The notes below the pieces were generated by a model. That model saw nothing but the letters and a program-made list of their open reading frames with translations, had not been told where the DNA came from and searched no databases. From Escherichia coli (GTDB taxonomy: Bacteria; Pseudomonadota; Gammaproteobacteria; Enterobacterales; Enterobacteriaceae): a stretch of DNA of 30,907 nucleotides. Position numbers and translations under genes: made by a program. Below are positions 27,304 to 30,907 of this stretch, one piece after another; position 1 is the first letter of the stretch; each line of letters begins with the position of its first letter. The DNA is taken from NCBI RefSeq assembly GCF_003334385.1, contig NZ_QOWN01000055.1, one strand, 5' to 3'.

Positions 27304-27545
27304 TTAGTTTACAGAGAGAGTGACGTTCCAGGGCAACAACTCTTTCATGCGGTTGGCAGGCCAGGTGTTGATTACACTGATCACGTGGCGTAGCCACGTT
27401 TCCGGCTCGATTCCGTTAAGTTTTGCAGCTACCGATCAGGCTGTACATCACTGCCGCACTATCGCTCGTCATCTCAAAGTCCGGTCTCGTCAGCAGGAAG
27501 GTATCATTCTCTCCCGCCATTTTTCTGGGGGCCCGGTCAGATAAG
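27304..27545 (-). pseudogene. IS66-family transposase C-terminal relic (frameshifted)
   Basis: Minus-strand translation ...AAKLNGIEPETWLRHVISVINTWPANRMKELLPWNVTLSVN* is homologous to the C-terminus of the intact TnpC (…CRLNGIDPEAYLRHILSVLPEWPSNRVGELLPWNVVLTNK). Upstream homology continues in another frame. Confidence 0.5.
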
Positions 27546-27690
27546 TCCCTTTGTCTATCGCTGACTCCTGGCTCATAACCCGGTTAGCAGAATGCAGGGG
27601 CACCACCTCGCCACGACCGAATCCGGATAAGTCAATTGCACCTTCTCAATCGCCATTTTGGTAAGCGTCAACGGAGCACCGTATTGACGC

Positions 27691-29304
27691 TTATTTATTG
27701 GTGAGTACTACGTTCCATGGCAGGAGTTCGCCAACTCGGTTGGAAGGCCATTCCGGCAGTACGCTCAGAATATGGCGCAGATACGCTTCCGGATCGATAC
27801 CGTTCAGACGGCAGGTGCCGATCAGCCCGTACAGCAGTGCACCACGCTCGCCGCCGTGATCGCTACCGAAGAGCACGTAATTTTTCTTTCCGAGACAGAC
27901 TGCACGAAGCGCTCTTTCCGCTGTGTTATTGTCCGCCTCCGCCAGACCGTCATCACAGAAGTTGCACAACGCAATCCAGTGCTTCCTGATATACCGGAAC
28001 GCATCTCTCAGACGGCATTTTTTCGATAACGTGTGTTCTTTCTCCTGCATCAGCTTATACAGGGAAGTCAGTAGCGGTTTACTCTGCATTTGCCTGACCG
28101 CCAGGCGTTCAGACACCGGCAACCCGCGTATTTCGTGCTCAATGGCGTACAGTTCACCGATTAGTTTCAGTGCTTCTTCCGCCGTCGCGCTTTTGGTACT
28201 GATATATACATCGTGGATTTTGCGCCGTGCATGAGCCCAGCATCCTGCTTCCGTCAACGCGCCGCTTTCACGTTCGGCACTGAACAGCCGATCGTAACCT
28301 GCGAACGCATCTGCCTGCAGGATACCCCGGAAGGGACGAAGGTGTTGCTCCGGATGTTTACCCTGATGGTCCGGTGAGTAGGCGAACCAGACCGCCGGAG
28401 GTTCTGGCGAACCGGCATTTCGGTCATCCCGGACATACGTCCAGATATATCCTGTTTTCGCCTTCTTCCTGCCCGGTGCCAGTACTTTTACTGGTGTGTC
28501 ATCAGTGTGAACCTTGCGGGTGTTCATCACATAACTGTACAGGGCATCATTCAGCGGAGTCATTAACTGGCAGCACGCATCAACCCAGTTGGAGAGTAAG
28601 GCACGGCTCAGTTCGACACCCTGGCGGGCAAAGATTTCACTCTGACGATACAGTGGCAGATGTTCGCAGTATTTTCCCGTTAACACGCGGGCAAGTAACC
28701 CCGGGCCCGCGATACCACGCTCTATCGGACGGGATGGTGCCGGTGCTTCAACGATGCAGTCACATTTTGTACAGGCTTTTTTTACCCGTTCTGTGCGGAT
28801 CACTTTTAGGGCGCTGCTCACCAGTTCCAGTTGTTCTGCACTGACTTCCCCCAGATAATCCAGCTCACCGCCACACTCCGGGCAACAGCTTTCTTCAGGC
28901 TCCAGGCGGTTTATTTCGCGGGGCAGATGCTCCGGTAACGGACGACGATGGCGTGACTGTCGCAACTGGCGGGGAACCTGCGGGTCATCCTCTCGCCCAC
29001 TGTAACGATCGCTGTCCTGTTCGCGTTGCTTCAGCTGGGCCTCAGCCTGTTCAACTTCACGACGCAGTTTTTCAGAACGGGTACCGAACAGCATCCGGCG
29101 CAGTTTTTCTATCTGAGCCCGCAGATGTTCTATTTCCCGTTCATCTTCTTCGATCTTTTCTTCGGCACGTGTCAGTGCAGAGCGCAGGAAGGCTTCCGTC
29201 TCTTCAACCAGACTCAGTTGCTGGTCTTTCTGACGGAGGGCTTCAGCCTGCTCAGAGAGCAACCTTTCCAGCTCTGCGATGCGAATGAGGTATTTCTGAC
29301 TCAT
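27691..29304 (-). CDS. tnpC: IS66-family transposase TnpC (full length)
   Basis: 537 aa; Cys-rich CPECG...CTKCD motif; intact IS66 C-terminus. Confidence 0.92.
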   Translation of the reverse strand: MSQKYLIRIAELERLLSEQAEALRQKDQQLSLVEETEAFLRSALTRAEEKIEEDEREIEHLRAQIEKLRRMLFGTRSEKLRREVEQAEAQLKQREQDSDRYSGREDDPQVPRQLRQSRHRRPLPEHLPREINRLEPEESCCPECGGELDYLGEVSAEQLELVSSALKVIRTERVKKACTKCDCIVEAPAPSRPIERGIAGPGLLARVLTGKYCEHLPLYRQSEIFARQGVELSRALLSNWVDACCQLMTPLNDALYSYVMNTRKVHTDDTPVKVLAPGRKKAKTGYIWTYVRDDRNAGSPEPPAVWFAYSPDHQGKHPEQHLRPFRGILQADAFAGYDRLFSAERESGALTEAGCWAHARRKIHDVYISTKSATAEEALKLIGELYAIEHEIRGLPVSERLAVRQMQSKPLLTSLYKLMQEKEHTLSKKCRLRDAFRYIRKHWIALCNFCDDGLAEADNNTAERALRAVCLGKKNYVLFGSDHGGERGALLYGLIGTCRLNGIDPEAYLRHILSVLPEWPSNRVGELLPWNVVLTNK

Positions 29305-29334
29305 GACCGTTTTTATAATGCGGTCAGGAGTTTT

Positions 29335-29685
29335 TTACAACATTGTCAGTGAGTTAAGGCGGGATGTTTTTGGCTGACGCCAGTCCAGCTTATCGAGGAG
29401 CATTACCAGTTGCGAACGGGTAATGGATACCTTGCCGTCACGTACCGCAGGCCAGATAAACTGGCCTTCTTCCAGGCGTTTGGTGAACAGGCACAGACCA
29501 TCAGCATCAGCCCAAAGAATTTTAACGGTGTCACCCCGTCGGCCACGGAAGATAAACAGGTGGCCGGAGAAGGGATTATCATTCAGCACATGTTGTACCT
29601 GTTCTCCCAGTCCGTTGAAGGATTTACGCATATCGGTAACGCCGGCAACGAGCCAGATACGGGTACCTGATGGGAGTGAAATCAT
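29335..29685 (-). CDS. tnpB: IS66-family accessory protein TnpB (Orf2)
   Basis: 116 aa; paralogue of the ORF at 1748-2098. Confidence 0.92.
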   Translation of the reverse strand: MISLPSGTRIWLVAGVTDMRKSFNGLGEQVQHVLNDNPFSGHLFIFRGRRGDTVKILWADADGLCLFTKRLEEGQFIWPAVRDGKVSITRSQLVMLLDKLDWRQPKTSRLNSLTML

Positions 29686-30107
29686 CTTCCCCTCCCGCTC
29701 AGTTCGCGGATCAGCACCGTGAGCAGCTCTGGCGATGGATTTTCCAGCGTTATGTTACCGTGACGGAACTCCACCTTGCAGGAACTGGCACTGACTCTGG
29801 TCTGAGTGGAAGTGGATAAAGACGGCGCAATGGCCGCCACAGGTTTTTTCTGCTCATCCGGCGTTATTTCTACAGGTAATAATTCAACGCCAGTGTCAGA
29901 AGAGGTCGTTACCGGAAGACGCCGCGAAACACGCCCTTCGTTCTGCCAGAGCCTGAGCCATTTGAAAATAACATTATCATTGACGCCATTTTCACGTGCA
30001 ATCTGTGCAACACAAGCTCCAGGTTGTGATGCCAGTTCCACCATACGAAGTTTGAATTCATTCGAATAGTTTTTACGAGGTTCTTTTCGCCAGTCCTGTA
30101 ATTCCAT
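29682..30107 (-). CDS. tnpA: IS66-family accessory protein TnpA (Orf1)
   Basis: 141 aa; 4-nt overlap with tnpB; conserved FKWLRLWQNEGR block. Confidence 0.9.
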   Translation of the reverse strand: MELQDWRKEPRKNYSNEFKLRMVELASQPGACVAQIARENGVNDNVIFKWLRLWQNEGRVSRRLPVTTSSDTGVELLPVEITPDEQKKPVAAIAPSLSTSTQTRVSASSCKVEFRHGNITLENPSPELLTVLIRELSGRGR

Positions 30108-30304
30108 ACTTAGATGTCCGTCTATATCAGATGGGCGTCTAAGTTACCAATTTTCGTCTGATGGCTACATACGGCGGTCAGTTTACGCTTACCCATTTTG
30201 TCACAATTAAGTTTGATAAAGCAGGTCACCTCTGCACTGAATCTGCTCCAGTGCCTCATTGGTCTCCGTCCTCCCCTTTAAACTGCCGGATAAGACTGCT
30301 GCAC

Positions 30305-30742
30305 GTAAGCGGCTCGCCAGAACCGTATTGATATTTACTGAGAGGTCAGATCAACTTTCCAGGGCAACAGATCGCGTACCCGGTTTGCCGGCCAGTCCTG
30401 GAGATGCTCAATAACGTAACGCAGCCATTTTTCTGGCTCTACATTGTTCAGACGGCATGTGCCGATCAGCGAGTACAACACCACCGCATGTTCGCCACCG
30501 CTGTCGGAACCCGCGAAGAGCCAGTTTTTCCGGCCTACGGCCACTCCCCGTAAGGCATTTTCAGCGATGTTGTTGTCGATTTCCACCCAGCCATCGTTCG
30601 CATAGTACGTCAGTGCCGGCCACTGGTTAAGTGCGTACGCGAACGCCTTCGCCAACTCTGAGTGTCGCGACAGGGTCTTCATCTTTTCCGCAACCAGCTT
30701 TCCAGGGATTTCAACAGCGGTTTCGTTTTTCGCTGACACCAT
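30305..30742 (-). pseudogene. Third IS66-family element fragment: terminal repeat plus the last ~120 codons of a transposase
   Basis: IS66-like end GTAAGCGGCTCGCCAGAACCGTATTGA at 30305. ORF 30335-30742 (…GRKNWLFAGSDSGGEHAVVLYSLIGTCRLNNVEPEKWLRYVIEHLQDWPANRVRDLLPWKV) is homologous to the TnpC C-terminus; homology is lost upstream of ~30700. Confidence 0.75.
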
Positions 30743-30907
30743 GGAGGGAGTGGTTAAAAGAGCAACGAGAAAGTGGTAATTATAACGCCAGCCGGATATG
30801 GCGGGAAATGGTGGCCCGGGGATTTACAGGCAGTGAAACCATCGTCAGGGATGCGGTTGCCAAATGGCGTAAAGGCTGGAACCCACCGGTTACTACTGCC
30901 GTCAGAC
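30742..30907 (+). other. Partial ORF running off the window end, resembling the N-terminal region of an IS21-family IstA transposase
   Basis: Plus-frame translation ...EWLKEQRESGNYNASRIWREMVARGFTGSETIVRDAVAKWRK... resembles the IS21 IstA block (…RLAENVWNSEVIFAEIKAMGYTGGRSMLRYYIQPKRK). No in-frame ATG is seen and the 5' part appears missing. Recalled from memory only. Confidence 0.25.

Follow-up and report, generated by a model that had tools for sequence, protein, structure and literature searches.

Three different IS66-family pieces and an ISL3 remnant downstream of iha at a likely module junction of an Escherichia coli pheV-type pathogenicity island

The DNA analyzed here, a stretch of 30,907 nucleotides from Escherichia coli (contig NZ_QOWN01000055.1; hereafter the window), is part of a pheV-type pathogenicity island, well known from uropathogenic strains, with aerobactin and iha genes, and sat lies just past the window end. 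Islands of this type carry Iha, Sat, and aerobactin (PMC7545054). Several insertion sequence (IS) pieces lie side by side at the right end of the window, raising the question of how they came together there. An initial annotation had read them as nested elements, left by repeated IS66 insertion next to existing IS66 ends or by successive insertions marking an island boundary, with the start of an IS21-family element at the far right. We conclude with high confidence that the cluster is a module junction in the island, made of the debris of successive, unrelated transposition and deletion events.

The three IS66-family ends or bodies of that annotation are all present and share one orientation: in each, GTAAGCG marks the left terminus and tnpC lies on the minus strand. 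The middle one, described as intact, is complete. It spans 2532 bp (27661–30192, minus strand) and contains, in this order and all on one strand, tnpA for a 141-aa accessory protein (29682–30107), tnpB for a 116-aa accessory protein (29335–29685), and tnpC for a 537-aa DDE transposase (27691–29304). From the coordinates, the tnpA stop and the tnpB start overlap in ATGA. All three products exceed their NCBIfam cut-offs (84.2 bits against 74 for TnpA with NF047595, 119.9 against 50 for TnpB with NF033819, and 443.2 against 180 for TnpC with NF033517), and TnpC matches model positions 4–385 of 387 (E 8e-133) and is 99.6% identical to WP_032221816.1. The arms of the inverted repeat (27660–27684 and 30169–30193) are 25 nt long and imperfect (84% complementary), and their within-element part is 24 nt (27661–27684 and 30169–30192). 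Both ends of the element start with GTAAGCG. Han et al. in 2001 and Gourbeyre et al. in 2010 reportedly described IS66 terminal inverted repeats as about 20–30 bp long and starting with GTAAGCG.

Flanking direct repeats, which the initial annotation had proposed to look for, can be read from the sequence as a perfect 8-bp duplication, CCATTTTG, at 27653–27660 and 30193–30200. A target duplication of 8 bp is typical of IS66 (PMC6778807). ISEc23 copies match the element at 92.8% identity, and its transposase is assigned by PGAP to the ‘ISEc43 family’; element names here are taken from PGAP product names. It shares with other E. coli IS66 elements (ISEc23, ISEc43, ISEc8, IS679, ISCro1, ISEc22, and IS682) the tnpA-tnpB-tnpC order with the tnpA stop over the tnpB start, the 2.5-kb length, the GTAAGCG terminal repeats, and the 8-bp duplication. 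There is no difference in kind from them, the copy being a sequence variant about 7% away from ISEc23. Judging from the intact reading frames, the repeats, and the duplication, the element is apparently functional.

The DNA into which this element went is neither an IS nor intact. It is a pseudogene of the Tle1-like/DUF2235 type on the minus strand, with stops, frameshifts, and an internal deletion, whose left part (27455–27660) is contiguous with its right part (30201–30304) in genomes without the IS. The nucleotide identity of the left part to an intact Tle1-like gene of plasmid pS19_141-f is 77%, and residues 115–165, 167–236, and 318–346 of the Tle1-like protein are matched in tblastn with in-frame stops present. 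When 27100–27660 was joined to the sequence from 30201 onward and used as a query, a contiguous match over positions 1–665 at 98.9% identity, covering both the site of the complete IS and that of the next IS66 fragment (fragment 2), was found in AR_451 and many other genomes, O55:H7 USDA5905 also among them. In AR_451 and O55:H7 USDA5905, where the site is uninterrupted, CCATTTTG occurs there only once, and in AR_451-type genomes the pseudogene runs on unbroken past 30304. The insertion of the complete element is polymorphic, with an empty site elsewhere, and related copies are found at many different sites. We considered that the complete IS might be nested in another IS, as initially annotated, and rejected this candidate: a search of the 299-bp spacer for IS66 homology found none, and the spacer is the decayed Tle1-like/DUF2235 gene. 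The only true nesting is that of an ISL3-family element inside a fourth IS66, beyond the window.

On the left of the complete element, relic 1 (27272–27465, minus strand, 194 bp) derives from an IS66-family element, of which it keeps the end next to tnpC: a GTAAGCG terminal repeat at 27272 and the adjoining last ~55 codons of tnpC, which contain one frameshift. It is 96.9% identical over 194 bp (E 1e-90) to an annotated IS66 end on plasmid p7_12_30A-1 (L009:3501-3693), its closest relative being this pO157-type plasmid IS66, and it matches residues 498–535 of the resident TnpC in tblastn (E 6e-12). PGAP labels 27304–27454 as ‘transposase domain-containing protein, frameshifted, missing N-terminus’. 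The initial annotation had placed this relic at 27304–27545; its IS66-related part stands but its boundaries do not, and 27466–27545 belongs to the decayed Tle1-like/DUF2235 gene. The gap between relic 1 and the complete element is 195 bp rather than the ~100 bp given before.

On the right, the gap to fragment 2 is 112 bp, in agreement with the earlier ~110 bp. Fragment 2 (30305–30737, minus strand, 433 bp) comes from a third IS66-family element, different from the other two, and is its tnpC-proximal end, truncated internally, with the GTAAGCG terminal repeat at 30305 and homology to the tnpC 3′ end over the last ~135 codons. It matches model positions 288–386 of NF033517 (E 1.1e-35), scoring under the full-length cut-off because it is truncated. 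Both this match and that of TnpC are much too strong to arise by chance. The fragment 2 match upholds the IS66 relationship that had been proposed for 30305–30742, of which only the right boundary is changed, to 30737. Over the outer ~380 bp, identity is 89–91% with ISCro1/IS679-type elements; over the inner 190 bp, it is 98% with ISEc8. Relic 1 and fragment 2 are both truncated copies of other members of the family than the complete one.

The last segment of the window, 30735–30907 on the plus strand, is an internal part of an ISL3-family transposase gene. It overlaps fragment 2 by 3 bp, GAC, and is 99.4% identical to a segment (L008:2501-2672) within a pseudogene annotated by PGAP as ‘ISL3 family transposase’. 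The remnant extends for 585 bp to a stop past the window, where the right terminal repeat of the element comes next. This repeat, of the ISL3 type (GGCTCTTCCGCAACCTG...), matches that of the L008 copy, which is longer and pseudogenised but end-to-end, and it adjoins the interior of the fourth IS66 tnpC, oppositely oriented. The segment in the window aligns to about residues 349–408 of a 547-aa ISL3 transposase, and the full remnant is collinear with residues 349–546. The full remnant scores 107.8 bits with NF033550 (E 6e-31), short of the 180-bit cut-off since no more than the C-terminal third of the transposase survives, and matches Pfam PF01610 (DDE_Tnp_ISL3; E 2.9e-13) with the DDE part only in the continuation outside the window. 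The remnant resembles ISL3 elements with a long (~540-aa) transposase in the ISL3 profile, the C-terminal half of DDE_Tnp_ISL3, and the terminal repeat beyond the window, and differs from them in retaining only the last ~195 codons, ~58 of them in the window. In this subgroup, as in the related 547-aa transposase, DDE_Tnp_ISL3 is split by an insert of ~155 aa that matches the IS21 helix-turn-helix (HTH) profile.

That insert accounts for the earlier reading of the window end as the N-terminal region of an IS21-family transposase (IstA). Residues 5–52 of the remnant do match NCBIfam transpos_IS21 (E 1.7e-6, model positions 53–104), but the IS21 profile NF033546 gives just 27.8 bits where the cut-off is 160, from the HTH segment only, and the matching frame runs on into the ISL3 C-terminus, where NF033550 and DDE_Tnp_ISL3 match. 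Moreover, the collinearity of the whole remnant with an ISL3 transposase that has the IS21-HTH-like insert and its near identity to the interior of an annotated ISL3 gene both oppose an IS21 origin, and no istB was found when it was looked for downstream in the matching genome. An IS21 start is practically ruled out, and the segment is an internal-to-C-terminal remnant of an ISL3 transposase. Because both profiles match one reading frame, an in-frame chimera of an IS21 fragment and an ISL3 fragment was also considered, and was rejected as the same collinear layout is found in full-length ISL3 transposases of unrelated bacteria. Hardly more credible is the idea that the three IS66 pieces are one element broken by a single rearrangement, e.g., an inversion or duplication. 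Their common orientation and closeness would fit it, but all three hold the tnpC 3′ end and the adjacent terminus, and pieces containing the same part of an element are not complementary parts of one copy. Pairwise nucleotide identity among them is only 58–68%, which makes them different elements, and their closest relatives differ (pO157-type IS66 at 96.9%, ISEc23 at 92.8%, and ISCro1/IS679 or ISEc8 types). The overlapping homologous regions and their divergence already refute the single-rearrangement reading. The independence that the initial annotation had assumed is supported instead, because every piece ends in a separate terminus, a perfect 8-bp duplication belongs to the middle one alone, and empty sites exist elsewhere; the three represent independent acquisitions of different elements.

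Why independent IS66 ends should gather here is a separate matter. With an uninterrupted sequence (L004:3988-5400) as the reference, IS66-family termini of different lineages map to positions 186, 574, 577, 617, 678, 845, and 895, making seven independent ends within ~710 bp downstream of iha across E. coli lineages. IS3-family insertions map to positions 266 and 603 in the same stretch. The IS66 density is more than would obviously follow from a purely neutral picture, so that a target preference is possible, and the seven termini come from at least five different members of the family. They include two insertion points 3 bp apart that differ in terminal sequence, as well as two simple insertions flanked by perfect 8-bp duplications (CCATTTTG and CAAAATAA), and the tnpC-proximal end is towards iha in six of the seven. 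The cluster could then stem from target choice rather than insertion tolerance, IS66-family transposases preferring sites near an existing IS66 end or a local hot spot, of sequence or of structure, downstream of iha. Against this, IS3-family elements entered the same stretch, the 6-to-1 orientation split is not significant (two-sided binomial about 0.13), and several of the seven ends are places where cassette homology stops, which may reflect IS-mediated recombination or deletion rather than fresh insertion. Furthermore, a consensus was sought among the inferred duplications (CCATTTTG, TTTTGTCA, ACTGAATC, TGCTGCAC, CAAAATAA, CATCAACC, and TCCAGAGT) and none in common was seen. Three of four other ISEc23-group sites are without an annotated IS66 piece within 2 kb, a sample too small for a rate, and the fourth is nested in another IS66. 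A literature search on IS66 target preference found nothing specific, and when the region was scanned, no promoter, terminator, or Rfam signal within the cluster rose above background. We regard targeted insertion as unlikely, and slightly more doubtful still is the specific proposal that the ~700 bp 3′ of iha, with the IS66 relic and the decayed DUF2235 gene, are a true family-specific integration hot spot, with insertion perhaps guided by the IS66 terminus already there or by some local feature of the DNA. Tolerated junk DNA is the simplest explanation of the clustering, because the stretch has also received IS3-family insertions and IS66 relatives in other places often lack an IS66 neighbor. 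On the same grounds, repeated insertion next to existing IS66 ends need not be invoked.

The other reading of the initial annotation, an island boundary marked by successive insertions, fits what is seen in related islands. In the best-matching genome the order is iucD-iutA-iha-[IS cluster]-sat/sigA, and PAI-CFT073-pheV-type islands with Iha, Sat, and aerobactin likewise have an aerobactin-iha-IS debris-sat order. Together with its IS66 relic, the iha cassette is common to the window and the O157:H7 tellurite/adherence island (98.7–99.5% identity), where it adjoins ter genes, and the cassette is found in other islands as well. The iha-bearing LAA island resembles these in having modules bordered by IS66-family transposases (PMC5539235). 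The comparison with related islands, suggested in the initial annotation, revealed empty sites and differing junctions in other genomes, and in several lineages the cassette homology stops at IS66-family termini. Because the iha cassette is common to several islands and its homology ends at such termini, the IS cluster is supported as the junction where the iha cassette meets the sat module. The difference from the PAI-CFT073-pheV-type, O157:H7, and LAA islands is the complete IS66 at 27660/27661, an insertion confined to 34 of the 5,426 complete genomes. These 34 genomes, all E. coli, contain the whole 3.8 kb at 98.5–99.8% identity, and most iha-bearing genomes have an empty site or other junctions instead.

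The sequences demonstrate what each piece is and where it ends, that the pieces are independent, and that the duplication and the empty sites exist; beyond that, a history in three steps can be proposed. An IS66-family element would have inserted 185 bp downstream of iha and later lost all but its last 194 bp. What is left, relic 1, today adjoins the decaying Tle1-like/DUF2235 gene and accompanies iha across many different islands. Another IS66-family element, different from the first, would then have entered the pseudogene at 30304/30305, while an ISL3-family element inserted into the fourth IS66 further right; a deletion at the 3-bp microhomology GAC could have joined the ISL3 interior to the second IS66 interior, producing fragment 2. 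The most recent event would be transposition of the complete ISEc23/ISEc43-group IS66 into the stretch of pseudogene that separates relic 1 from fragment 2, with the typical 8-bp target duplication as its trace. We infer the order of the events and the deletion mechanism from one end state. IS66 is known to mediate deletions via homologous recombination (PMC6778807). The IS66 copies here also offer homology for recombination and deletion that shuffle island modules.

The cluster is without cellular function; it is traffic of selfish elements through DNA in which an insertion carries no cost. The finding is ordinary, since the families, their architecture, and their role as island borders and recombination substrates are already established; RefSeq/PGAP annotation of each piece already exists in matching genomes, and the result matters little beyond bookkeeping. 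Its by-products are the exact boundaries and target duplication of the complete IS66, the correction of the IS21 call to ISL3, and a site whose occupancy differs among genomes and could mark a lineage, a small UPEC-associated genome group. If the hot spot were real, it would explain why IS66-family ends almost always border iha cassettes in unrelated islands, and would be a first handle on IS66 target choice. The clustered independent IS66-family ends 3′ of iha may offer a lead on that choice or on the movement of the iha cassette between islands.

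The complete IS66-family element (27661-30192) carries three minus-strand ORFs that match the NCBIfam profiles of IS66 TnpA (29682-30107; 84.2 bits against a cut-off of 74), TnpB (29335-29685; 119.9 against 50) and TnpC (27691-29304; 443.2 against 180). Inverted arms of 25 nt with 84% complementarity were returned by the repeat search (27660-27684 and 30169-30193), and single-base reading gives a 2532-bp element that opens with GTAAGCG (from 27661) and closes with CGCTTAC (up to 30192). A perfect direct repeat of 8 bp, CCATTTTG, borders it at 27653-27660 and 30193-30200; IS66 is reported to make duplications of this size (PMC6778807). 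Many copies annotated as ISEc23 match the whole length of the element at 92.8% identity, and a transposase near-identical to its own is labeled 'ISEc43 family' by PGAP. Another IS66-family element with tnpA, tnpB and tnpC lies at 292-2609 (minus strand); it shares the tnpA-proximal terminus of the complete one, to which it is 86% identical. It lacks the tnpC-proximal ~218 bp and terminus, so that its 522-aa tnpC ORF (149-1717) finishes in foreign sequence.

When the element and one duplication copy were removed and the flanks joined, positions 1-665 of this query (27100-27660 joined straight to 30201-30304) were found contiguous at 98.9% identity in AR_451 and many other genomes, with the junction reading ...CGCCATTTTGTCACAATT... 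and only one CCATTTTG. Therefore the complete element is a simple insertion, present in some genomes and absent from others. Beyond 30304 the window turns to GTAAGCG (30305), whereas the empty-site genomes carry on with an unrelated sequence, so the adjoining IS66-family fragment (fragment 2, 30305-30737) is also an addition relative to the AR_451-type arrangement.

The 299-bp spacer between fragment 2 and the IS66-family relic on the other side (relic 1, 27272-27465) comprises 27466-27660 and 30201-30304, and has no IS66 homology. By sensitive blastn, it is 77% identical to an intact gene for a 'T6SS phospholipase effector Tle1-like catalytic domain' on a 6.7-kb plasmid. In tblastn, residues 115-165, 167-236 and 318-346 of the Tle1-like protein align on the minus strand, broken by stops, frameshifts and an internal deletion. 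Thus the complete element, which had been described as nested, occupies a dead gene rather than another IS.

Relic 1 (194 bp) codes for the last ~55 TnpC residues; an IS66-family element of plasmid p7_12_30A-1 matches it with its tnpC-proximal end, at 96.9% identity and with one single-base indel. The initial annotation was right that this piece is IS66-related, but had placed it at 27304-27545 by tracing an antisense ORF; the homology ends at 27465. Fragment 2 contains a terminus and the last ~135 tnpC codons (NF033517, E 1.1e-35), its outer part resembling ISCro1/IS679-type elements (89-91% identity) and its inner 190 bp ISEc8 (98% identity). Compared pairwise over their common part, these two pieces, the complete element and a fourth fragment from beyond the window show 58-68% identity and are different IS66-family members. 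They cannot be parts of one rearranged copy because each holds the same element end.

The last 173 bp (30735-30907), taken at first for an IS21-family N-terminal region, match the interior of a PGAP-annotated ISL3-family transposase pseudogene of strain CFSAN061768 at 99.4% identity, from about codon 348 of ~540. In a matching genome the frame runs on 585 bp to a stop, and the 194-aa product gives E 6e-31 with the ISL3 profile and E 2.9e-13 with Pfam DDE_Tnp_ISL3; its match to the IS21 profile is confined to residues 5-52, at 27.8 bits versus a cut-off of 160. In tblastn, ISL3 transposases from unrelated bacteria align collinearly with the remnant over its entire length; in a Cupriavidus protein of 547 aa, the aligned part is residues 349-546. 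An IS21 start is thus excluded by this collinearity and the IS21 score. The DDE_Tnp_ISL3 domain of the Cupriavidus protein is split (model 1-139 at residues 160-289, 138-240 at 445-543) by an insert that itself matches the IS21 HTH profile, and therefore a real motif had been recognized but assigned to the wrong family and the wrong gene end. The IS66 and ISL3 homologies share 3 bp, GAC (30735-30737), a microhomology at which a deletion may have joined them. Outside the window, the right terminal repeat of the ISL3 element adjoins the interior of the fourth IS66 tnpC (plus strand). The terminus of that fourth fragment precedes the sat module. Only here in the neighborhood is one element truly nested in another.

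An ISL3 transposase subgroup of ~540 aa has the DDE domain split by a ~155-aa insert with an IS21-like HTH (L002:457-2100, from Cupriavidus; L001:11631-12215). Among the E. coli copies examined, the one whose ORF is longest (L008) is itself frameshifted. On Klebsiella pneumoniae plasmid p1B5617 (L003:3001-3576), an unannotated remnant encodes protein 76% identical to the same C-terminal region; it also occurs on more than 1000 other Klebsiella plasmids, in many of them with an aquaporin/arsenic cluster on one side and a relE/pco copper-resistance cluster on the other.

By megablast, 27100-30907 is entire in 34 of 5,426 complete E. coli genomes (98.5-99.8% identity). The best match, UPEC-245U/190328, is annotated in the order iucD, iutA, iha, IS cluster and sigA (an autotransporter toxin gene at the sat position), followed by a traF pseudogene and a further IS66 fragment. 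This layout is that of a pheV-type pathogenicity island, for which Iha, Sat and aerobactin are listed in CFT073, UMN026 and CE10 (PMC7545054). A solo 48-bp IS66-family terminus lies at 21749-21796, 230 bp past iutA; the ISEc22-like element downstream of iha in FORC_043 has the same sequence (100% identity) as its tnpA-proximal end, and therefore the aerobactin module too has an IS66-end border. The island also carries a sialic-acid utilization cluster (3182-10996) with NCBIfam matches to N-acetylneuraminate lyase, N-acetylmannosamine kinase, sialate:H+ symporter, N-acetylneuraminate epimerase and a NanR-like regulator, and, at scores under cut-off, two esterases (best profiles pectin acetylesterase and acetylxylan esterase) and an OmpL-like porin.

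The iha ORF (24996-27086, 696 aa) is followed by a perfect 15-bp hairpin (27116-27160; repeat search). Its cassette is common to O157:H7, O55:H7 and other backgrounds at 98.7-99.5% identity, and in the loci of O157:H7 and O55:H7 covers 23105-27660 as a minimum, including relic 1 and part of the pseudogene; elsewhere, the shorter extents are set by how much flank was fetched or by inserted ISs. Upstream of iha, in DNA common to the O157:H7 island, 22914-22987 (minus strand) matches the EHEC small RNA Esr41 (RF02676; 108.6 bits, gathering score 102).

The right border of the cassette differs between backgrounds. Numbered on the uninterrupted AR_451 sequence (574 being window 27660, and 678 window 30304), it has relic 1 at 186, an IS3-family element at 266, the complete element at 574, a 13-bp terminus GTAAGCGTACAGC followed by a truncated ter gene at 577 (O157:H7), an IS600 fragment at 603, the ISEc22-like element in opposite orientation at 617 (FORC_043), fragment 2 at 678, ISEc23 with duplication CAAAATAA at 845 (DETEC-S566) and an IS66 fragment at 895 (O55:H7 USDA5905). 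Seven IS66-family ends, from at least five family members, thus fall within ~710 bp, two of them 3 bp apart, and several coincide with the place where cassette homology stops. In O157:H7 SS17 (L005:4561-4580, equivalent to 3 bp right of window 27660), only the 13-bp terminus remains, joined to the truncated ter-family gene, and the annotated 'TerD family protein' ORF crosses it into the DUF2235 pseudogene remnant.

The three IS66-family pieces proposed initially are real, with corrected boundaries, and their divergence, the empty sites and the variable right border support reading them as independent insertions that mark the border of a module. So striking a density of ends lends some support to repeated IS66 insertion, yet that the stretch downstream of iha is a true IS66 hot spot appears improbable. 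Against a targeting mechanism, IS3-family insertions fall in the same stretch, the inferred duplications have no common consensus, and a sample of four ISEc23-group sites elsewhere includes three that lack any annotated IS66 piece within 2 kb, the fourth being nested in another IS66. Therefore the favored account is that insertions gathered passively in dispensable DNA of an island rich in IS66. In the E. coli LT2-3 chromosome (L017:1211-4517), from the four-site sample, one IS66-family element is clearly inserted inside another: tnpA-tnpB of one precede a complete opposite-orientation copy.

Each piece falls in a known family, the island is itself a known one, and in matching genomes PGAP has annotations for all of them, so the arrangement is ordinary. 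IS66-mediated recombination and deletion have been shown in Agrobacterium (PMC6778807), and the LAA island, which bears iha, has been described with IS66-family genes as borders of its modules (PMC5539235); the IS66-family ends at which homology stops may be a record of IS-mediated recombination or deletion.
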